Positions 19,972-48,017 are shown, numbered from the stretch's first letter. The stretch: 64,000 nucleotides of DNA from Escherichia coli (GCF_003018255.1 NZ_CP027440.1); one strand, 5' to 3'. Program-made: numbers and translations. The notes: generated by a model not told the origin, from the letters alone.

Positions 19972-20078
19972 TTTAATTCTCCACGCTTATAAGCGAATAA
20001 AGGAAGATGGCCGCCCCGCAGGGCAGCAGGTCTGTGAAACAGTATAGAGATTCATCGGCACAAAGGCTTTGCTTTTTG

Positions 20079-20678
20079 TCATTTATTCAAACCTTCAAGC
20101 GATTCAGATAGCGCCAGCTTAATCGGTTCAACAGCGAAGGTCAGCCCCTTTTCGCCGTTGTCCGCGACAACATAACGCAGTGCACCTTCTGTCTCGGTGT
20201 AATAACGTTTGTTTTTCCCCGCCGTTAGTAGCGCCTGCAGTTTTTTCTGGCTTTGAGTTTTGGTCATTAATGGGGTGAGTGTGCGGATCACCGCTGCCAT
20301 GTATGCCTGAGCTTTCGCTTTCGCGGCTTTTTGCTCTGGCCCCTGGATGGGTAGCCAGGTCATTTGAATGCTTTTGATTTTTAAGGTACCGCGCTCCAGC
20401 GCAGTAGAAGCATACAAGTTCTCGTTAATTTTACTTGCTGCACGAGTGAGATTGGCTTTGTCGGGACTGCTGTCGATGGCACGAAATTCGTTCAGTGGCA
20501 GGCTGGGATTCTGGCTGTTAAAGTCTTCTCGAAACTGGCTGATGGAGAGATCGAAAGTAGGGGCTCCAGCCAGCAGATAAGGCGCGGTCGTTGCCGTATC
20601 TGGTGTTTGTGCATGCGCCGTTGTTGTAACGGTTAATGCAGAACATAAGAGAAAAAACAGCGTACACCCTGGCTTCAT
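20079..20678 (-). CDS. yiiQ: DUF1454-family periplasmic protein YiiQ
   Basis: 199 aa with signal peptide MKPGCTLFFLLCSALTVTTTAHA; synteny next to tpiA. Confidence 0.9.
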   Translation of the reverse strand: MKPGCTLFFLLCSALTVTTTAHAQTPDTATTAPYLLAGAPTFDLSISQFREDFNSQNPSLPLNEFRAIDSSPDKANLTRAASKINENLYASTALERGTLKIKSIQMTWLPIQGPEQKAAKAKAQAYMAAVIRTLTPLMTKTQSQKKLQALLTAGKNKRYYTETEGALRYVVADNGEKGLTFAVEPIKLALSESLEGLNK

Positions 20679-20778
20679 TGACAGTACCTTTTGTTATGAC
20701 TGGCTCCGATTAAAACGATATCTGTCGCCCTTGTCAAAAGGGTAGAATCCTGGAAAAGACAACCATCAAGGAACTTAC

Positions 20779-21219
20779 ATGACCATACAGCAATGGTTAT
20801 TCTCATTTAAAGGGCGTATTGGACGCCGTGATTTCTGGATTTGGATAGGCCTGTGGTTTGCAGGCATGCTGGTGCTTTTCTCACTGGCGGGTAAAAATTT
20901 ACTCGATATTCAGACCGCGGCGTTTTGCCTTGTGTGCTTGCTTTGGCCAACAGCGGCAGTAACCGTTAAGCGCTTGCATGATCGCGGGCGTTCCGGCGCA
21001 TGGGCATTTCTGATGATTGTGGCGTGGATGCTGCTGGCGGGTAACTGGGCAATTTTACCGGGTGTCTGGCAATGGGCGGTGGGGCGTTTTGTCCCGACAT
21101 TGATTCTGGTGATGATGCTTATCGATCTTGGTGCGTTTGTTGGCACACAAGGCGAAAATAAATATGGTAAAGATACCCAGGATGTGAAGTATAAAGCCGA
21201 CAATAAATCAAGTAATTAA
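20779..21219 (+). CDS. yiiR: DUF805 inner-membrane protein YiiR
   Basis: 146-aa translation MTIQQWLFSFKGRIGRRDFWIWIGLWFAGMLVLF. Confidence 0.9.
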   Translation: MTIQQWLFSFKGRIGRRDFWIWIGLWFAGMLVLFSLAGKNLLDIQTAAFCLVCLLWPTAAVTVKRLHDRGRSGAWAFLMIVAWMLLAGNWAILPGVWQWAVGRFVPTLILVMMLIDLGAFVGTQGENKYGKDTQDVKYKADNKSSN

Positions 21220-21430
21220 CCTTTAATATATCTCTTATCGCTATTTTTTTCCGGGATTGTTATTTCCACGATGCAAGTGACAATGCCCGGAAAATCCTTC
21301 TGAACTCTTCACCTTAAGCAATATCAAAAAAAATGGTAATCCATAAGATCATTACTTGTTTGTTCTTCCTTTAACGGCGCATTATTCTTAAGTCGTAATC
21401 GACAGAGAGGCGAATATACAGAGGTGCCCT

Positions 21431-21730
21431 ATGAAAGATGTCGTAGATAAATGCAGTACTAAAGGATGTGCGATTGATATCGGTACGGTGATTGATAACG
21501 ACAACTGTACCAGTAAGTTTTCGCGCTTTTTTGCCACCCGCGAAGAAGCAGAGTCCTTTATGACCAAACTGAAAGAGCTTGCCGCCGCTGCATCCTCTGC
21601 AGATGAAGGGGCCAGCGTGGCCTATAAGATTAAGGATCTGGAAGGGCAAGTTGAGCTTGATGCGGCCTTCACCTTCTCATGCCAGGCCGAGATGATTATT
21701 TTTGAGTTATCACTGCGTTCGTTAGCTTGA
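21431..21730 (+). CDS. yiiS: UPF0381 protein YiiS
   Basis: 99-aa ORF immediately upstream of uspD; synteny. Confidence 0.85.
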
Positions 21731-21756
21731 TGGAGTTGCTTTAGAAGGAGTTAAAT

Positions 21757-22185
21757 ATGGCTTATAAACACATTGGCGTGGCAATTTCCGGGAATGAAGA
21801 AGATGCCTTACTGGTGAATAAAGCCCTGGAGCTCGCCAGACATAATGACGCTCACCTGACGTTAATTCATATTGATGATGGCTTAAGCGAGTTGTATCCG
21901 GGTATCTACTTCCCTGCAACAGAAGATATTCTTCAATTGTTGAAGAATAAGTCGGATAACAAGCTGTATAAACTGACGAAAAATATTCAATGGCCGAAGA
22001 CAAAACTGCGTATTGAACGCGGAGAAATGCCGGAAACACTGCTGGAAATTATGCAAAAAGAGCAGTGCGACCTCCTTGTCTGTGGTCATCACCACTCATT
22101 TATCAACCGTTTGATGCCGGCATATCGCGGGATGATCAATAAGTTGAGTGCGGATTTGCTCATCGTGCCGTTTATCGATAAGTAA
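21757..22185 (+). CDS. uspD: universal stress protein D
   Basis: 142-aa translation [42 protein letters not shown]. Confidence 0.93.
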
Positions 22186-24177: not shown

Positions 24178-27225
<3,048 letters not shown>

Positions 27226-27280
27226 TTACGCTTCATCTTTCGCGTAATTTCTTTACTGTGTAGGCCAACAGGTAACGCAG

Positions 27281-27308
27281 AAAAAAGGCACCTTGCGGTG
27301 CCTTTTTT
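27281..27308. terminator. bidirectional intrinsic terminator between zapB and rraA
   Basis: aaaaaa-ggcacc-ttgc-ggtgcc-tttttt: GC stem flanked by A and T runs. Confidence 0.75.
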
Positions 27309-27309
27309 A

Positions 27310-27795
27310 TCATTCAATATCCAGCGGATCTTCTGAAAGAATAATCCCGGTATTGTCGGCGTAAAGATGGTCGCCGGAGAAGAAGGTTACACCGCCAAAA
27401 TTGACGCGGACATCGCTTTCGCCAATGCCTTCGCCAGCGGCACCAACCGGAATTGCGGCCATTGCCTGGATGCCGATATCCAGCTCTTCCAGGTCATCTA
27501 CCTGACGCACCGCGCCGTAAATGACCAGACCTTCCCATTCATTTTGTACTGCCAGACGCGCCAGTTCAGCATCGACCAGTGCGCGACGAACAGAACCACC
27601 GCCATCGACGACAAGAACACGACCACGGCCATTCTGTTCGAGCAGATCGTACAGCAACCCGTTGTCCTCGAAACATTTTACCGTGATTATTTGTCCGCCA
27701 AACGACGCCCGTCCGCCAAAGTTGGAGAACAGCGGTTCCACGACGTTAACATCTTCTTGATAGATGTCACAAAGCTCGGAAGTATCGTATTTCAT
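27310..27795 (-). CDS. rraA: RNase E regulator RraA
   Basis: 161-aa translation [46 protein letters not shown]. Confidence 0.95.
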
Positions 27796-27887
27796 AGGCT
27801 TAACATTCAGTTGCTGCGAGAATTTTCAGTATATCGCGCTATGTAGGCTGTTGGCAAAATCATCAATTGTTAATTGATATTTGTCAG

Positions 27888-28814
27888 TTATGCTGCCCAC
27901 TGGCTTAGGAATATCCCTAAAACAAACAGCAGGTTAGTCAGTAACGCTCCCTTGACAGTGCGTTCCAGCATCGGTCGCATCGCCACCGGGTCCATTTCCC
28001 GCATCACATAACGGGCTTGCTTCACCAGTAATGGTGCCGCCAGCAGGAACAGCCAGCCCCACAGGCTATGCAGCGAAAAGAGATTAAACAGCGCCAGGCA
28101 CACCAGAGAGCCCATCAGCAGGCAGGCATGATAACGACGCGCGTTCACTTCACCTAAGCGCACCACCAGCGTGTTTTTGCCATTTTCGCGGTCGCTATTG
28201 ATATCACGCAGGTTATTAATGTTCAGTACTGCCGTTGCCAGCAGGCCGCATGCGGTCGCCGGAAGGATCAGCGCCGGAATCAATGTATGAGCCTGTAAAT
28301 ACCAGCTGCCCATGACGCTCAACCAGCCAAAGAAAACCAGTACGGAAATATCACCCAGACCGATATAACCATAAGGACGATTGCCCACGGTGTAGGTGAT
28401 AGCGGCAATGATCGACAACCCGCCAAGAATCAGGAAACCGACAAAATCGGCCAGTGTATGGCACGCCACTGCAACCAGTGCCAGCCCGGAGAGACAGATG
28501 AGCACGACGGTAATAATGAGCGCCCGTTTCATCTCTTGCTGGGTAATGACCCCTTTTTGCATGCCGCGTAGCGGTCCGATACGGTCAGGTTTATCGCTGC
28601 CTTTTACCGCATCGCCGTAATCATTGGCGAGGTTAGAAAGGATCTGTAATAGCCCGGCGGTAATCAGTGCCAGCAGGGCGACCAGCGGATCGAAGTGACC
28701 TTGCCACCATGCCAGCGCCGTCCCGACGATAATTGCAGCAAAGGCGAGGGGGAGGGTTTTAGGTCGTAAACTTTCCAGCCACGCCTGAGTTCGGCTAATT
28801 TGTTGTTCAGTCAT
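27888..28814 (-). CDS. menA: 1,4-dihydroxy-2-naphthoate octaprenyltransferase
   Basis: Translation MTEQQISRTQAWLESLRPKTLPLAFAAIIVG, 308 aa; UbiA-family polytopic protein. Confidence 0.93.
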   Translation of the reverse strand: MTEQQISRTQAWLESLRPKTLPLAFAAIIVGTALAWWQGHFDPLVALLALITAGLLQILSNLANDYGDAVKGSDKPDRIGPLRGMQKGVITQQEMKRALIITVVLICLSGLALVAVACHTLADFVGFLILGGLSIIAAITYTVGNRPYGYIGLGDISVLVFFGWLSVMGSWYLQAHTLIPALILPATACGLLATAVLNINNLRDINSDRENGKNTLVVRLGEVNARRYHACLLMGSLVCLALFNLFSLHSLWGWLFLLAAPLLVKQARYVMREMDPVAMRPMLERTVKGALLTNLLFVLGIFLSQWAA

Positions 28815-40650: not shown

Positions 40651-40824
40651 ACCTCTAAACCACCTCCTGCGGAGGTGGTGATTGATTGTCATTTTGCCTT
40701 TGGTCAGTGCCCCGGTAATAAGGGGGCTTTTGTGTTGAGCGATGAATTCACAGTGTGAATGGTGAAGTTATTTATGACAATTACAAAATGGCATTAAGTA
40801 AAAATATCTAAAACATCACCTGAT

Positions 40825-41685
40825 TTAAAATTGATAACCAATAGTAGTATAGGTTCCCCATCCTGTGTTTTTTAATTCAAATGGACCATCTCCGAAGTTA
40901 ACTTTCTCCCCAGCATTCCATTGTCCACCGTTGTGAAAATAACGTAGTGTAAATGCAAATTTCCAGTGTTCATATAGCAGGGAAAGGATATGGCTTGAAG
41001 CAATAGCATTACTGGTTCGTTTATTATTGTGTGATTTGTCCGCAAGATCGGAGCCAAAATCAAAGTTAGTAAAACTATTGTATACCAATCGCCCTCCGAA
41101 TAAATGGGTAAGAGGAATGCTATATTTTATTTTGAATCGATATCCGTCCCATTCATTTTCATTAGCGGCACCATAGTTTTGCCACTGATACTTGGCGTAT
41201 ATATTGGCAGAAAGCTTAATTGGTAGACCCGTGTCGATATCTGTACCAAGCCCCATATACCATGTACTTTGCCGGGATGACTGGTTGTCACCCATATCAT
41301 AGACATAGTTGTTTGCAATGAACCATTCTTTAAAAGGGCCGAACGCAAGATTTAATCCGGTCAATTTGTCAATGGAAAACCGAGGTTCTATTTCCGTAAA
41401 TAGTGGTGAGCCCTCATCCCAGATCCCAACATCATAGTGACTGCCGACGCCAAAGAATTTTGGTAGATCAACATAACCATAAAAATCAAACCAGTCTTTT
41501 CTTCCTGCTACAGTATATTCAGGGTAGAGGTCGTTAGTCAGTCTTGGGCCAAAGCGAGAGTCTGTGCGACCAATGACATTCAAGCTTTGATGTAACCAGC
41601 TTTCATCAATTTTAATTTCCTGAGCGTTTCCAATGCAAGGTATTAATAGAATGGATAAAGCTATCCCGTGCTTTTTTATACACAT
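40825..41685 (-). CDS. Tsx-family outer-membrane nucleoside-specific channel (Tsx paralog)
   Basis: 286 aa with a signal peptide; shares long blocks with E. coli Tsx as I recall it ([81 protein letters not shown]) and ends in an aromatic residue (GYQF). Confidence 0.85.
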
Positions 41686-41724
41686 AAATATATCTCATTA
41701 TTTATTGTTGATTTAGAGAAAAAT

Positions 41725-41761
41725 AATGCCATTCAGTGAATGAATGGCATTATAATTTTTT
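41725..41761 (-). terminator. intrinsic terminator after nucleotidase paralog A (bidirectional-looking)
   Basis: aatgccattca-gtgaa-tgaatggcatt 11-bp perfect stem flanked by A/T runs on both sides. Confidence 0.6.
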
Positions 41762-41763
41762 TA

Positions 41764-43389
41764 TTATTTGCTAACGTCCACCCGCATTTCATTTACCTGT
41801 GCAGGCGTAATCTTGTGGCCTTTCTTCAAATAATCGATCACGACATCGGACATGTTATTTCCGGCGCGGACCTGAACATTTTTCCCTTCTTTGAATGCCA
41901 GAAAACCATCGCCCCCCAGTGCAAGGAAAGTCGTTGTTGCAACATGGTAAATATTCGTATCAACGATCTCTTCACCATTAATTTTAAAAGATACTATGCG
42001 CTGACCTACTGGTTTCTTCGGGGTATAGCGCATTTCTGCGCCTTTTGACATTTGCAGGATGCCATTGGTAAGCGATGCCCCGTGTTCCAGTAGGTTACGC
42101 AGATCCTTACCGCTGAGATCCATTTCAGTAAGTTCATTCTTGAAGGGGAATGTACTGGTAATGTCGCCAAAGGTAATCGTGCCTGCATTTATATCCGCAC
42201 GTAAGCTGCCGGAGTTTATCAATGCAATCTGTGCAGTCGGTGCAGCGACAAGCATTGCATCGGTAAACAGGTTGCCAAGTTGCGATGACTCACCGTAGGC
42301 ACGAGTTAATGCAATCGATGATTCACCGACTGGTTGGCGTACAAGATCCGCCAGTTTTTTATTCCAGCCATTGATAACTTTTTGTGTGGTTGGATCAGGT
42401 ATCCATTCATCGGCATAAACCGTTTTCAGCTCAAAGCTCTTCACTTTATGAGTACGAGCTGTAGGGTTGACATCAAGGATTAATTTACCAATATCGATAC
42501 CGCCACTGTCAGTCGAAAGGATTAAGGTGTTGCCGACTTTGATTGGTTCTGGCGTTCCGACGTGGGCATGCCCGGTAATCAGAATATCCAATCCTTTCAC
42601 CTTGCTTGCGGTTTGAATATCTTTATCAAGAGCGCGTCTAACATCTGTATTGCCAATGCTGGACTGACGCGCCGGTACGCCTTCATGAACCAGCGCCACG
42701 GTGAGGTCAACCTTATCACGTAACTCATCGATATAATGCTGCAAATACTTCACTTCATCACGTGCTTCAATCCCCTGATTCTTGAGGGTCGCGGAAGATT
42801 TATCAAATCGGTTATTATTGTCATTATCGAGTCCCTGGAGAGAGAGCTCCGAGACCGTGTCATTAAATGCAAATACGCCGTGTAGCCCAACAATACCAAT
42901 CTTGATGCCATCTTTTTCCAGGATGGTGTAGGGCTTGTTCCAGAAGGGTTTCTCACTCTCTTTATGATAAACATTGGCTAATAAAACAGGGAAATTCGCT
43001 TTGCTTAATTGTCGGAGGGCATTATCCCAGCCATGGTCAAACTCATGATTACCGATTGATACTGCGTCAAAAGGCATGGTATTCATAATATCAATTATTG
43101 CTTCGCCCTTTGTCAGGCTACTGATATATGGCCCGGTGAAATAGTCTCCAGCATCAAAATAAAAGGTGGCTTTATTTTTGGCTTTCTCTTGTTTTACTAA
43201 CGTGGATATATTGGCAAAGCCACCAATGTCGCGTTTTCCGTCTGCGACATACGGTACTTTATAGGAATCCACATGAGCGTGAAGATCATTGGTATAAATA
43301 ATCGTGACATCCTGCGCCATAACTGAGGTCGAAAAAATAGTCAGCAATGTTGCGGCAAATAAAGTACGCTGCGCTGTTTTCATTCGCAT
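41764..43389 (-). CDS. UshA/CpdB-family periplasmic metallophosphoesterase / 5'-nucleotidase, paralog A
   Basis: 541 aa; signal peptide ending VMA|QD; calcineurin-like motifs [27 protein letters not shown]; C-terminal 5'-nucleotidase-type region with GGDGF; alternative ATG at 43383. Confidence 0.85.
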   Translation of the reverse strand: MRMKTAQRTLFAATLLTIFSTSVMAQDVTIIYTNDLHAHVDSYKVPYVADGKRDIGGFANISTLVKQEKAKNKATFYFDAGDYFTGPYISSLTKGEAIIDIMNTMPFDAVSIGNHEFDHGWDNALRQLSKANFPVLLANVYHKESEKPFWNKPYTILEKDGIKIGIVGLHGVFAFNDTVSELSLQGLDNDNNNRFDKSSATLKNQGIEARDEVKYLQHYIDELRDKVDLTVALVHEGVPARQSSIGNTDVRRALDKDIQTASKVKGLDILITGHAHVGTPEPIKVGNTLILSTDSGGIDIGKLILDVNPTARTHKVKSFELKTVYADEWIPDPTTQKVINGWNKKLADLVRQPVGESSIALTRAYGESSQLGNLFTDAMLVAAPTAQIALINSGSLRADINAGTITFGDITSTFPFKNELTEMDLSGKDLRNLLEHGASLTNGILQMSKGAEMRYTPKKPVGQRIVSFKINGEEIVDTNIYHVATTTFLALGGDGFLAFKEGKNVQVRAGNNMSDVVIDYLKKGHKITPAQVNEMRVDVSK

Positions 43390-43423
43390 TCCTTGTTAAA
43401 TAAATTGACTGATAAATGAGATT

Positions 43424-44977
43424 TTATTTGGCGACGTCCATGACTCGTTTAGTTAAGTCTGGGGTGACAGGTTTATGATTTTTGAAATAATCGATGATAG
43501 ATTCCGCCGAGGTTGTTCCCGGTATCGTCTTCACATTTTTTCCATTCAAAAATGCTTCAAAACCGTCACCACCACTGGCACAAAAGGAGTGCGTGGCAAT
43601 ACGATATGTTTGATTATCTTCCACGGGTTTGCCGTTAATGGTGAAAGAGATTAACCGTTGGTTGAGGGGTTTTTTGCTGTCATAGACAACCGCAACACTT
43701 TTAGAAACTTGTAACACACCGTTAGTTAGATTGGTTGCATGCGTCATCAATGATTTGAGATCGCGGCCCGTCAAATCCATCTCGATGAGGTCATTATTAA
43801 AGGGGAATGTGCTAATAACATCTCCCAGTGTGATATCGCCTTTAGGAAAATCAGCTCGAATCCCACCGCTATTTTGAAATCCGGCAACGGCATCAGGTGT
43901 TTTTTCCATCATTGCATCAAGAATAAGGTTGCCGGTAGAAGAGGAACTACCATACTCACGTGTTAAAACTACGGGAGAATGGCCGACAACTTCCTGTGTT
44001 ATTTTGTTAAGCTTTGCACTCCATTTATCAATAGTATTTTGAACGATGGTGTCAGGTTTAAATTGATCTGCAAAGATGGTGATTAACTCACCATTATAAC
44101 TGTCAATTTTCTTCGTTTTCGGATTGTAATCAAGCACAAGTTTTCCGATGTTGGTGCCGTATGCATCGGTAGATACAATTAATGTGTTATTAACTTTTAT
44201 TGGTTGCGGTGTTCCGACATGTGCGTGACCGGTAATTAAGACATCAACACCATTCACTTTTTTAGCTGTCTCAATATCTGCCTGTAGTAGCCGCTCCACA
44301 TCTTTACTACCAAAGCTTGATTGACGCGCCGGGACACCTTCGTGAATTAGCAAAACGGTAATGTCGACTTTACCTTTTAATTCTGCAAGTGCTTTATTTA
44401 AATATTTAATTTCGTCTCTGGCTTCTACGCCTTCACGTGCTTTTGCCGCGACTGTATCATAGAAAGCGAATGCGCCATGCAATCCAATCACACCAATCTT
44501 TAAACCATCTTTTTCGATAATGGTCCACGGATGATCCCAAACTGGTTTATTCGTATCGGTGTAGTAGATATTTCCCAGCAGAATGGGGAATTTTGCTTTT
44601 GATAACTGAGACACCATATTGGGCACACCGTGATCGAACTCGTGATTACCAACAGACACCGCATCAAAGGGCATAGTGTTCATGATATCAATAATAGCCT
44701 CACCTTTGGTCAGGGTGCTGATATACGGCCCGGTAAAATAGTCGCCTGCATCAAAGAAAAACACATCTTTGCTTTTTTTCTTCGCTTCATTAACGATGCC
44801 TGAAATATTAGCCATACCACCTATAAGTCTGTTCTTATCAACAGCGATGATTTTTGCTGGATTGACATGTGCGTGAATGTCATTCGTATAATAAATAGTA
44901 ACGTCCTGAGCTAGAACACTGTGAGAAAATATCACGCCGAATATGACTGATAATGTTGTAAATACAGTTTTCATCAT
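43424..44977 (-). CDS. UshA/CpdB-family periplasmic metallophosphoesterase / 5'-nucleotidase, paralog B
   Basis: 517 aa; signal peptide ending VLA|QD; same motif set (YTNDIHAH, FDAGDYF, GNHEFD, ITGHAH, GGDGF); 34-bp gap to paralog A suggests co-transcription. Confidence 0.85.
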   Translation of the reverse strand: MMKTVFTTLSVIFGVIFSHSVLAQDVTIYYTNDIHAHVNPAKIIAVDKNRLIGGMANISGIVNEAKKKSKDVFFFDAGDYFTGPYISTLTKGEAIIDIMNTMPFDAVSVGNHEFDHGVPNMVSQLSKAKFPILLGNIYYTDTNKPVWDHPWTIIEKDGLKIGVIGLHGAFAFYDTVAAKAREGVEARDEIKYLNKALAELKGKVDITVLLIHEGVPARQSSFGSKDVERLLQADIETAKKVNGVDVLITGHAHVGTPQPIKVNNTLIVSTDAYGTNIGKLVLDYNPKTKKIDSYNGELITIFADQFKPDTIVQNTIDKWSAKLNKITQEVVGHSPVVLTREYGSSSSTGNLILDAMMEKTPDAVAGFQNSGGIRADFPKGDITLGDVISTFPFNNDLIEMDLTGRDLKSLMTHATNLTNGVLQVSKSVAVVYDSKKPLNQRLISFTINGKPVEDNQTYRIATHSFCASGGDGFEAFLNGKNVKTIPGTTSAESIIDYFKNHKPVTPDLTKRVMDVAK

Positions 44978-45206
44978 CCCTCCTGGATAGGGTGTGTTAC
45001 ATTTGTTGAATTATTTAAATAAAAGACACATCGTGTCTTATTTTATGTAAGCATAGTTCAGAAAAGTATTGTGTGATCTTAGTAACAAATAATGTTATTA
45101 ATTAAACATTGACCATGATTATATTTCACGGTCATACATTTATATATTTAATTAAATGAAAGGTAGTGTTCTCTCTTAATTTATGGTCGTTTGTCGAGTG
45201 TATTGA

Positions 45207-46331
45207 CTAACAAGATGGAGTGAGCGATTCATTGTATTTTAACGCCAGTGAGGTCAGCATTTGTGTTACGCGACCTGCGGATAATAACGCGCTTTGGGTA
45301 AAGTCGTGTTGGTCTGTCAGCCATGTGATAAAACAACGACTGGTTGCCAGAGAAACATTTGCGCCCCTTTCTAAGCAGGCTCCCGTGAGTAGGCAGACCA
45401 TCTTGCAGTTATTCCCCTGCTCCCAGCGCTGCCACTGATTTTGCCACCAACCATGGTATGTCGTTCCCTTAAAATGCCAGGGCGTATCAGCGTTACTGTC
45501 ACTGATTTCTTCTTCTACGAACCAAAGTTCACCTTGTTGTTGGCGGAACTGATCTGCCCAGGCTGTAATAATTGCGCCTCTTAGAAAACATTCGTGTGAA
45601 ATAATATGCGTTTTGACATCTGGATAGCGGATTTTCAGTATTCTGAAATGCCCGTGTGCCGTGATAACCGGGCGTAGTATGGCTCCCTTACCGTTGCGCT
45701 TGAGTACAGCACTGCCATACTGAATTTCATCGAACTGGCTCCGGCGCAAGAATTGCGCTTCACGCATATCTACCTTCTGCACGATATCGCGATGGTGCAT
45801 AGTTGGTTCTGTGTTGCCCTTGTAACTGTACCGCAGACTGTCTCCTGTCTGATGTTGCGTATAATTCGTGGAGAGATGAAGAATGTTGCCACGAGTGGCG
45901 TCAAGACTGACTAAAACATACAGTTTTTGTACTGCGCTGGCCCCTTGAAAGGGTATGAACAGTTGAACGGTTTCAATGGCCTGGGGATGCGTAATTTCTT
46001 TCTGATACTGTTTAGGCGTCCAGACTTTTTTGCAGTTACGGCATTGAATGCGTTGCGAACCCTGTGGATTGTGACCATAACAAATCATGTCTGTGCCATA
46101 ACATACCGGGCAGAAATGACCCTTCTCCGAGGCCCACGTAGATAAGTGAACTGACAACCAGTCACGAAATTGTTGCTCGTCAAACAACGGCGGGTAACTG
46201 CCACATGCCCGACAGTGCAGTGCCGGATAACCCAGTTTATAGTCTGGCCAACTGTAATCTTCCGATGAGGCCAATCCCAAATTTCGGCAACCGAACGTTT
46301 TACAGGCATTAATCGTAAACAGAGTCGACAT
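45207..46331 (-). CDS. cysteine-rich cytoplasmic protein with transposase-type zinc ribbon (possible IS1/IS1595-like transposase relic or regulator)
   Basis: 374-aa ORF with no signal peptide; Cys pairs at C10/C15 and C40/C43, then CPVCYG...GSQRIQCRNCKKVWTP resembling the CPxC...QRYxCxxCxKxW zinc ribbon of IS1 InsA / IS1595 transposases; assignment is by motif only. Confidence 0.55.
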   Translation of the reverse strand: MSTLFTINACKTFGCRNLGLASSEDYSWPDYKLGYPALHCRACGSYPPLFDEQQFRDWLSVHLSTWASEKGHFCPVCYGTDMICYGHNPQGSQRIQCRNCKKVWTPKQYQKEITHPQAIETVQLFIPFQGASAVQKLYVLVSLDATRGNILHLSTNYTQHQTGDSLRYSYKGNTEPTMHHRDIVQKVDMREAQFLRRSQFDEIQYGSAVLKRNGKGAILRPVITAHGHFRILKIRYPDVKTHIISHECFLRGAIITAWADQFRQQQGELWFVEEEISDSNADTPWHFKGTTYHGWWQNQWQRWEQGNNCKMVCLLTGACLERGANVSLATSRCFITWLTDQHDFTQSALLSAGRVTQMLTSLALKYNESLTPSC

Positions 46332-46463
46332 ATATCACCAACGATTTCACAAGGTCGTTGATTTTGTCCGGCAACTATCCCCTGCAGATGTGATTACTCT
46401 CACATAAATAAGTCTTTCAGAACGTAATGTAGCAATCCTTTATCTCACTGAAAGGGATTGTTT

Positions 46464-48017
46464 ATGAAAATTAAAATACTTGCTGCGGGTATCGCATTAA
46501 CACTGCCGTTCTGGGCTTGCGCTAAAGATGTCACTATTATTTATACCAACGACCTCCATGCGCATGTAGAACCTTATAAAGTGCCGTGGATCGCTGACGG
46601 TAAACGGGATATTGGCGGCTGGGCAAATATCACTACGCTGGTTAAGCAAGAAAAAGCAAAAAATAAAGCGACATGGTTTTTTGATGCGGGCGACTATTTT
46701 ACCGGGCCATATATCAGCAGCCTGACCAAAGGTAAGGCTATTATCGATATTATGAATACTATGCCGTTTGATGCCGTCACGATAGGCAACCATGAATTTG
46801 ACCACGGCTGGGACAACACATTATTACAGTTGAGTCAGGCAAAATTCCCGATTGTGCAGGGCAATGTTTTTTATCAGAACAGCAGTAAATCATTCTGGGA
46901 TAAGCCCTATACCATCATCGAAAAAGACGGTGTGAAAATAGGCGTTATAGGTTTGCACGGTGTATTTGCCTTTAATGACACAGTATCTGCTGCCACGCGA
47001 GTGGGTATTGAGGCGCGTGATGAAATTAAATGGCTACAACGTTATATCGATGAACTTAAAGGCAAGGTTGATTTGACCGTCGCCCTGATCCATGAAGGTG
47101 TTCCGGCCCGCCAGTCCAGTATGGGAGGCACAGATGTGCGTCGCGCGCTGGATAAAGATATTCAGACGGCAAGTCAGGTGAAAGGGCTGGATATTTTGAT
47201 CACCGGACATGCACATGTGGGTACGCCGGAACCGATTAAAGTCGGCAATACGCTCATCCTCTCCACTGACAGCGGCGGGATTGATGTGGGCAAACTGGTT
47301 CTCGACTACAAAGAGAAGCCGCATAATTTTACGGTGAAAAACTTCGAGCTTAAAACCATTTACGCTGACGAGTGGAAGCCCGATCCACAAACGAAACAGG
47401 TGATCGACGGCTGGAATAAAAAGCTTGATGAAGTGGTGCAACAAACGGTGGCGCAATCGCCGGTTGAATTAAAACGTGCCTATGGTGAATCGGCTTCCCT
47501 CGGGAACCTGGCGGCTGACGCTTTACTGGTAGCGGCGGGTAAAAACACCCAATTGGCGTTAACCAACTCTGGCGGCATTCGCAATGAGATCCCCGCAGGG
47601 GCGATCACGATGGGCGGCGTCATCAGTACGTTCCCGTTCCCCAACGAACTGGTGACGATGGAACTCACGGGTAAACAATTACGCAGTCTGATGGAACACG
47701 GCGCAAGTTTAAGCAATGGCGTTTTACAGGTATCGAAAGGCCTGGAAATGAAGTACGACAGCAGCAAGCCGGTTGGTCAGCGGGTAATCACACTGACTCT
47801 GAATGGCAAACCCATTGAAGATGCGACGGTTTATCACATTGCTACTCAGAGTTTCCTTGCTGATGGTGGAGATGGTTTTACCGCCTTTACCGAAGGGAAA
47901 GCGCGTAACACAACGGGCGGTTATTACGTTTATCACGCGGTGGTTGATTACTTCAAAGCGGGCAACACCATTACGGATGAACAGCTCAACGGTATGCGCG
48001 TGAAGGATATCAAATAA
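46464..48017 (+). CDS. UshA/CpdB-family periplasmic metallophosphoesterase / 5'-nucleotidase, paralog C
   Basis: 517 aa from the ATG at 46464 (RBS aaggga; the ORF-track ORF starts at a TTG at 46458); signal peptide ending ACA|KD; motifs [32 protein letters not shown]; closest by eye to paralog A. Confidence 0.85.

Follow-up and report, generated by a model that had tools for sequence, protein, structure and literature searches.

We analysed a 64,000-nucleotide stretch of Escherichia coli DNA (GCF_003018255.1, NZ_CP027440.1; hereafter the window), which is chromosomal, of ExPEC/B2 type, and carries metB–metL on one side and metF–katG on the other side of an accessory islet of 7.2 kb (window 40.8–48.0 kb). 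The islet, which has metL and metF as its borders, contains five genes: three for paralogous nucleotidases, here called NT-A, NT-B and NT-C, one for a nucleoside channel (tsx) and one, labelled 'hypothetical protein', for a transposase-like protein (hyp). It corresponds to GR31 (metL..metF) in a 2026 comparison of the avian pathogenic E. coli (APEC) strain BEN2908 with extraintestinal pathogenic (ExPEC) and adherent-invasive (AIEC) strains, which lists a Tsx homolog and three UshA-domain open reading frames (ORFs) and suggests, without experiments, a nucleoside processing and transport system (PMC12928451).

NT-A (41764–43389, 541 residues) and NT-B (43424–44977, 517 residues), the most divergent paralog, lie in tandem on the minus strand, and NT-C (46464–48017, 517 residues from its ATG), the core and most conserved paralog, is inverted on the plus strand beyond hyp. 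These ORFs are the three full-length paralogs of 541, 517 and 517 residues that an earlier, sequence-only reading of this DNA had placed in 41764–48017. The RefSeq starts of NT-A and NT-B are at 43383 and 44974, giving proteins of 539 and 516 residues, and an alternative upstream boundary of the NT-C ORF lies at 46458. The hyp gene (45207–46331, minus strand), located between NT-B and NT-C and absent from the earlier reading, encodes a cytoplasmic protein of 374 residues with two Cys4 zinc ribbons, one of them InsA-like as in IS1, and a domain with an RNase-H/DDE-transposase fold. The fifth gene (40825–41685, minus strand) is the last of a B–A–tsx string; it is a second paralog of tsx and encodes a nucleoside channel of the outer membrane that belongs to the Tsx family. 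Its product matched NCBIfam NF011686 over the full length with 493 bits (cut-off 311 bits), is labelled 'nucleoside-specific channel-forming protein Tsx' in RefSeq and is 67% identical to Tsx (PMC12928451).

Family membership, active sites and predicted export signals

Hidden Markov model searches with the three nucleotidase paralogs gave E-values of 1e-44 to 1e-58 against family models, far beyond chance. On NT-A, Pfam identified both domains typical of the family, 5_nucleotid_C (E 1e-36) and Metallophos (E 8e-11), and the same pair is precomputed for all homologs. The motifs FDAGDYF, GNHEFDH, ITGHAH and GGDGF, to which the sequence-only reading had drawn attention, are present in NT-A, NT-B and NT-C. 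Its term 'UshA/CpdB-type' held at the level of the superfamily and failed at the level of equivalogs: the proteins scored about 80–170 bits against the UshA, CpdB, NadN and SoxB models, compared with cut-offs of 436–883 (UshA NF007109, 152–169 vs. 600 bits; CpdB NF006938/TIGR01390, 77–103 vs. 486/883; NadN TIGR01530, 123–134 vs. 436; SoxB TIGR04486, 147–157 vs. 550). The top NCBIfam match was the 5'-nucleotidase half of a YfkN-type model, at 185–196 bits and below the curated cut-off, and the Nt5e and LPXTG nucleotidase models gave weak matches. NT-A, NT-B and NT-C are a subfamily of their own, with the Thermus 5'-nucleotidase and CD73 as the closest among solved structures.

To check individual residues, NT-A, NT-B and NT-C were aligned with K-12 UshA and CpdB; the roles of the UshA residues are known from published UshA structures. 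UshA D41, H43, D84, N116, H117, D120, H217 and H252 are kept in all three proteins, as are the C-terminal nucleotide-binding residues R410, F429, N431, F498 and D504. The position of UshA Q254 is a His, as it is in CpdB, and the counterpart of UshA R375/R379 is ambiguous in the alignment. The metal ligands and the His–Asp dyad are invariant across 28 homologs. Because the metal, His–Asp and nucleotide-binding residues are all retained, the paralogs do not show the loss of catalytic His/Asp that had been named beforehand as the mark of pseudoenzymes. The alignment thus supports assigning them to the secreted-type UshA/CD73/CpdB superfamily with, as predicted, intact catalytic residues. A loop with the sequence VPARQSSxGxxDVRR, at residues of about 235–247 (window 42649–42687 in NT-A), is common to the three proteins and absent from UshA and CpdB. 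AlphaFold modelled this subfamily signature with a predicted local distance difference test (pLDDT) score below 50.

NT-C is the protein of PDB entries 3IVD/3IVE, 'Nucleotidase', a structural-genomics target from E. coli (phmmer, 1122 bits; 4 differences over 499 residues, ~99% identical). This is presumably c4898 of CFT073, and we take the two entries to be uridine and cytidine complexes, which would mean a nucleoside pocket. A literature search on c4898/3IVD/3IVE returned irrelevant papers only, without activity data.

On inspection, the N-termini of all three proteins look like Sec signal peptides with A-X-A sites, as had been claimed, each with a positive n-region and a hydrophobic core. 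The cleavage sites were read as VMA↓QD in NT-A, VLA↓QD in NT-B and ACA↓KD in NT-C. The mature N-terminus, described earlier as near-identical, therefore starts with QD in NT-A and NT-B, and with KDVTI rather than QDVTI in NT-C. Putative signal peptides were seen in all orthologs inspected, and the PDB construct of NT-C begins at residue 21, past the predicted cleavage region, which supports the assignment. The Cys of the NT-C ACA is Ser in Citrobacter orthologs, indicating that it is not part of a lipobox and that NT-C is not a lipoprotein. Neither a lipobox nor an LPXTG motif was found in the sequences of NT-A, NT-B and NT-C, so they carry no surface-anchoring signal, and all three are predicted to be periplasmic.

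Age and divergence of the paralogs

At the protein level, NT-A and NT-C are 68% identical, NT-A and NT-B 56%, and NT-B and NT-C 57%, in agreement with the earlier impression that A and C are the closer pair and B the more divergent one. A neighbour-joining tree of 52 homologs from the fetched loci separated three clades, each with several genera, in which A groups with C as its sister and B branches off outside this pair; the A orthogroup has members in Citrobacter, Enterobacter and Escherichia. Between paralogs, synonymous sites are saturated, with a proportion of synonymous differences (pS) of 0.77–0.83 and a nonsynonymous divergence (dN) of 0.24–0.39. Between orthologs, comparison with Citrobacter enshiensis gave ratios of dN to synonymous divergence (dS) of 0.062 for NT-A, 0.049 for NT-B, 0.031 for NT-C and 0.049 for tsx, values close to those of metL (0.028) and metF (0.020). 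NT-C is 88–92% identical across genera.

The saturated dS between paralogs, the multi-genus orthogroups and the low dN/dS between orthologs show that the triplication is ancient and stably maintained. The set had been called 'triplicated, diversifying' in the sequence-only reading; the three paralogs are there, but saturated pS and a dN/dS of 0.03–0.06 for each of them, a mark of strong purifying selection, are not those of ongoing diversification. An ancient and stable trio is compatible with a division of labour, and substrate specialisation of NT-A, NT-B and NT-C is plausible: since the paralogs are ancient and under purifying selection, the three enzymes probably split the substrate range.

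The insertion reported in NT-A only, at about 42775–42850, is real. It consists of 20 residues in the N-terminal domain, ELSLQGLDNDNNNRFDKSSA, encoded at 42790–42849 on the minus strand (residues 179–198 of the 539-residue form). Its consensus, ELS[LI]QGLDND[NK]NNRFDKS[SA]A, is near-invariant in 7/7 A orthologs from Escherichia, Citrobacter and Enterobacter, and it is absent from NT-B, NT-C, a 517-residue A-like sister protein and UshA. In DNA, NT-A and NT-C form inverted repeats of 461 and 534 nt with 70–75% identity, interrupted exactly at the insertion. The AlphaFold model of NT-A did not resolve the placement of the insertion relative to the active site, with pLDDT <50 over residues 182–202. 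Elsewhere in the alignment, ten columns are fixed inside each clade and differ among all three. One of the ten adjoins the base-stacking Phe at the position aligned to UshA G430, with K in the A clade, N in the B clade and P in the C clade. A further 205 columns carry one same residue in all three clades.

The hyp/NT-C core and its putative control regions

Among 5426 complete E. coli genomes, NT-C was found in 1843, and A and B, which mark the full islet, in 658. A short form of the islet consists of hyp and NT-C alone and accounts for about 1185 metL–metF alleles, and about 3580 alleles are empty; K-12 and O157:H7 have the empty site. The full islet is carried by B2/ExPEC/AIEC-type strains, among them the E. 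coli type strain, UTI89, RS218, APEC O1 and LF82. A genome scan with the hyp protein, using the narrower family alignment, yielded 34 loci, and hyp was divergent to an adjoining NT-C-type gene in every one not cut by a contig end. The pair usually lies at metL–metF and occurs in Citrobacter, Klebsiella, Kosakonia, Phytobacter and Superficieibacter, as well as in Pseudocitrobacter, Kluyvera, Salmonella arizonae and Escherichia species. The core unit is this divergent hyp/NT-C pair. It is extended in one form by hyp-B-A-tsx opposite C at metL–metF, as in the window and in C. enshiensis, and in another by hyp opposite a C-B-tsx-A operon at another genomic site, as in Enterobacter, Citrobacter wls619 and some Escherichia. 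Citrobacter, Enterobacter and Escherichia thus share the set of hyp, C, B, A and tsx, which comes in two gene orders and occupies two sites in the genome. A membrane protein of 327 residues in C. enshiensis and a SPASM-like fragment of 319 residues in Enterobacter are mutually unrelated and were therefore placed outside the module.

The five islet genes have a GC content of 40–48%, compared with 52–57% in metL and metF, so the DNA is compositionally foreign. Between full- and short-islet alleles in E. coli, dS was 1.10 for hyp and 0.088 for the adjacent NT-C; recombination therefore brought in the full islet, exchanging the hyp allele and adding B-A-tsx. A mobile element bearing the enzymes was ruled out, as there are no IS-type terminal repeats and the locus is syntenic at metL–metF across genera. 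A defence system was ruled out as well, PADLOC having returned zero defence-system matches for all five islet proteins. A 7.8 kb region is 100% identical in strain JNE23-011. Some strains have two hyp/NT-C units, one at metL–metF and a second full module elsewhere (L025/L017, L043/L020 and L045/L035). The first of these, E. coli SCPM-O-B-8794, has four nucleotidase paralogs (C, two B-like and A) and tsx in one string at locus L025. In E. coli CS18F, a chicken isolate (locus L053), an IS1A insertion disrupts NT-C, which is thus dispensable at least in that strain. Further lower-GC stretches of the window, at 1–2000, 20001–22000 and 26001–28000 (43–48%), may be more accessory DNA.

The 132 bp spacer between hyp and NT-C was aligned across 37 loci and contains three conserved blocks. 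One is an inverted repeat, CAACGA-N10-TCGTTG (46339–46360), which abuts the hyp start codon on its upstream side and is conserved in about 30 loci from at least 10 genera. It occurs once in the window, and 0/100 shuffles gave a match. The repeat is a candidate operator or 5'-untranslated-region (5'-UTR) hairpin; its arm variants place wobble pairs on differing strands in differing species, an observation that bears on the choice between RNA hairpin and DNA operator. The next block is a CRP site, TGTGATTACTCTCACA (46389–46404), a perfect match to TGTGA-N6-TCACA upstream of NT-C and the sole zero-mismatch match in the 64 kb. It is kept in all 37 spacers, including that of a Vibrio locus whose hyp is 29% identical. 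If a TAATGT hexamer is taken as the –10-like element of NT-C, the centre of the site would fall about 41 nt before the implied start point, consistent with class-II geometry. The third block, TTTCAGAACGTAA-GTAGC, is followed by the ribosome-binding site. TGCAA/GTTGCA-like (CytR-like) motifs were noticed by eye just upstream of this CRP site.

The spacer between hyp and NT-B, upstream of NT-B, contains a CRP-like site, TGTGATCTTAGTAACA (45072–45087), with one mismatch to TGTGA-N6-TCACA and inside a block conserved between E. coli and C. enshiensis. From these two sites, we infer that NT-C and B-A-tsx would be under the control of cyclic AMP (cAMP) and CRP. A search of the whole window for a Pho box, with up to 3 mismatches allowed, was negative, and Pho regulation of the islet was ruled out on this ground; riboswitches and other structured RNAs were also ruled out for the spacers, where Rfam gave no matches at E ≤ 0.1. 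In the interval between NT-A and tsx, a scan for terminator-like structures found a hairpin with a 13 bp stem and T runs on both strands (41723–41753), possibly a partial terminator or attenuator. The hairpin shares the core AATGGCATTA, in inverted orientation, with 40778–40796, immediately downstream of tsx, and related short repeats therefore flank the tsx gene on both sides.

The hyp family is rare, with 123 representatives in 1.84 billion clusters. Pfam gave weak InsA zinc-ribbon matches to hyp and nothing beyond, and the IS1 transposase model NF033558 matched with 22 bits over the zinc-ribbon part only, compared with a cut-off of 100. In the alignment of the family, four Cys pairs are conserved, R197 and H228 do not vary, and N156, Y168, Y205, P221, H246, E247, W296, W300 and N367 are near-invariant. 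When the family profile was compared with InsA by hhalign, it matched the whole protein, zinc finger and helix-turn-helix (HTH) included, with 96.7% probability (E 3e-10). The hyp protein of the window keeps the zinc ribbon (C74, C77, C97 and C100) and has a deletion where the InsA HTH aligns. Its C-terminal domain has an RNase-H/DDE-transposase fold, in which no DDE triad is conserved across the family: the only acidic columns are D144, D201 and E247, none of them on RNase-H strand 1 or 4. A relationship of this core to IS1 InsB was ruled out (comparison probability 0.1%). No inverted repeats were found flanking hyp, which is present in one copy per nucleotidase module, syntenic across genera and under purifying selection (dN/dS about 0.15), weaker than that on the enzymes. 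In the AlphaFold database (AFDB), relatives bear the label 'cytoplasmic protein' or 'IS1 family transposase'; their sources are Enterobacterales, Vibrio, Photobacterium and kin.

The gene context was inspected for nine remote hyp homologs with 20–40% identity (loci including L008, L009, L012, L014, L015, L049, L050 and L052). A 5'-nucleotidase-family gene was the neighbour at three separate loci, one of them L049. The other contexts held Tsx with a nucleotidase and a phosphodiesterase; a porin with a class-B acid phosphatase and a class-II cyclic-nucleotide phosphodiesterase; a tal-add-deoCABD-like operon with TatD and a Bmp-type ABC transporter; a PNP/UDP phosphorylase; endonuclease I with a large LTD-domain protein; and, for homolog P0164, nothing nucleotide-related. 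Genes for the breakdown of nucleotides, nucleosides or nucleic acids thus adjoin the remote homologs in 8/9 contexts. Judged solely by the genes with which it is associated, hyp is probably a domesticated transposase serving scavenging genes, likely as a DNA-binding regulator.

Proposed function and comparison with known systems

The divergent hyp/NT-C core with its conserved consensus CRP site suggests a periplasmic scavenging module under catabolite control, and we consider it probable that the islet as a whole serves to scavenge nucleotides in this way. According to this model, the three nucleotidases would reach the periplasm by way of Sec and would there meet nucleotides that have entered via porins. 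Their di-metal centre and His–Asp dyad would hydrolyse nucleotide phosphate esters, and the released nucleosides would be taken up by inner-membrane transporters. The Tsx paralog would raise the outer-membrane flux of nucleosides or deoxynucleosides. Transcription of NT-C and B-A-tsx would be driven by cAMP–CRP, with the divergent, transposase-derived hyp as a candidate local regulator. The set of three nucleotidases singled out by the sequence-only reading stands as far as the enzymes go, but it is not the whole set: the module adds the Tsx channel, the promoter with the CRP site and the transposase-derived protein, and it was already in the literature. The independent report on GR31 reaches the same general reading (PMC12928451).

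Several points weigh against this proposal. K-12 already carries UshA, CpdB and AphA, which makes the benefit of a further module less obvious. The substrates of Tsx are nucleosides and not nucleotides, and its connection with the nucleotidases is therefore indirect. Both CRP sites are sequence predictions, and literature searches found no enzymatic, localisation or expression data for NT-A, NT-B and NT-C. Finally, the short enterobacterial hyp is without the HTH segment that InsA and the longer members of the family have in common, which makes the regulator idea weaker for the gene in the window.

A different role would be directed at the host: as ecto-nucleotidases, the enzymes might break down ATP, NAD or cyclic dinucleotides outside the cell, or produce adenosine, and so dampen immunity, like Staphylococcus aureus AdsA, streptococcal CdnP/Nt5e and human CD73. 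This would explain the enrichment in ExPEC/AIEC, since the full islet occurs in B2/ExPEC/AIEC-type strains, and the nearest non-identical solved relatives are the Thermus 5'-nucleotidase and the CD73 group, not UshA, with weak matches to the Nt5e and LPXTG nucleotidase models besides. However, without a lipobox or LPXTG anchor, the enzymes would be periplasmic and meet only substrates that cross the outer membrane; moreover, the core hyp/NT-C pair is common in plant-associated and environmental Enterobacteriaceae such as Kosakonia, Phytobacter and Superficieibacter, and a nutritional role is suggested by the CRP-type promoter and by Tsx as a partner. We therefore regard a host-directed role as unlikely. 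Acquisition of phosphate, rather than supply of nucleosides, by phosphatases of the Pho regulon has a precedent in Vibrio cholerae, whose periplasmic nucleotidases scavenge phosphate from extracellular DNA, and some remote hyp homologs adjoin acid phosphatase, endonuclease I and Xds-like genes. With no Pho-box-like sequence in the window at ≤3 mismatches and a CRP site as the conserved promoter element, such a function is very improbable here.

The remaining alternatives concern the enzymes themselves. The copies could be redundant, kept for dosage or as spares and without substrate specialisation. In line with this, NT-A, NT-B and NT-C do not differ at any of the catalytic residues or main substrate contacts, the three clades agree at the 205 shared columns, and most locus-bearing E. 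coli hold only NT-C (1843 with C vs. 658 with A and B). Yet the paralogs, at 56–68% identity and with saturated dS, persist as separate multi-genus orthogroups at dN/dS 0.03–0.06. The A-clade insertion is conserved, residues near the base pocket differ by clade, and four paralogs stand in one operon of one E. coli strain (L025). Plain redundancy thus appears quite unlikely. That the proteins might be pseudoenzymes, or bind nucleosides without catalysis, is hardly credible: we found no point in its favour, and all three keep the metal ligands, the His–Asp dyad, the Arg that binds phosphate and the two stacking Phe, which are invariant in the 28 homologs.

Returning to the catabolite-controlled scavenging module, a wider proposal can be made for hyp, one that we hold only tentatively and with more doubt than confidence. 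The hyp family may be a domesticated IS1-like transposase, with an InsA zinc ribbon, an HTH in some members and a dead RNase-H fold, that became a transcription factor of scavenging genes, possibly nucleoside-sensing, in Enterobacterales and Vibrionales. In E. coli, it might act at CAACGA-N10-TCGTTG together with CRP, over three sub-functionalised nucleotidases and a second Tsx. A literature search combining domesticated transposase, IS1 and nucleoside returned no papers. If hyp is a regulator, it would be both a new case of a transposase domesticated in bacteria and a regulator that had been missing for the scavenging of nucleotides.

As first stated, the enzyme trio is ordinary: the genes are annotated, one crystal structure exists, the islet is published and the superfamily is well understood. 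The nucleotidase subfamily is new within a known kind, and the association with the hyp family is the part most worth pursuing. The subfamily is widespread: roughly one in three E. coli carry it, as do many Enterobacteriaceae, and the rate at which NT-C evolves is almost as low as that of the flanking housekeeping genes metL and metF. With three natural paralogs and an existing structure, sub-functionalisation in the salvage of nucleotides in the periplasm could be tested cleanly, and the substrate profiles of the paralogs could explain the extended set in B2/ExPEC lineages.

Among known systems, the closest counterpart is the crystallised protein of PDB 3IVD/3IVE, which is the same protein as NT-C and is without the 20-residue insertion of NT-A; the structure covers NT-C, and NT-A and NT-B have no solved structure. 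UshA shares the Metallophos and 5_nucleotid_C domains, the signal peptide (putative in the islet enzymes) and the metal, catalytic and nucleotide-binding residues. However, NT-A, NT-B and NT-C are 24–28% identical to it, have His in place of Q254, carry the extra VPARQSS...DVRR loop and have a shorter inter-domain region. The Thermus thermophilus 5'-nucleotidase (2Z1A) aligned from end to end with E 4e-46, and CD73 and the snake-venom ecto-5'-nucleotidases likewise with E of about 1e-32 to 1e-35, both at low identity. CD73 itself is a glycosylphosphatidylinositol (GPI)-anchored eukaryotic dimer, and these likenesses would transfer only the generic 5'-nucleotidase mechanism. With CpdB, YfkN and NadN, the islet enzymes share the superfamily and, as predicted, the secreted location; they are 27–28% identical to YfkN and are without the C-terminal extension of CpdB.

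The hyp family resembles IS1 InsA/InsAB' in its InsA zinc finger and HTH profile, its RNase-H/DDE fold and its database labels, and differs from them in having no InsB similarity, DDE acids or terminal repeats and in being single-copy and syntenic. As a regulatory system, the islet recalls the CytR/CRP nucleoside regulon of E. coli (tsx, deo, udp, cdd and nupC/G). It differs from that regulon, as far as can be read from its sequence, in having a single CRP site and a divergent hyp in place of a LacI-type regulator, and shares with it a Tsx-type channel, a predicted CRP site at what would be class-II distance and a logic of nucleoside supply.

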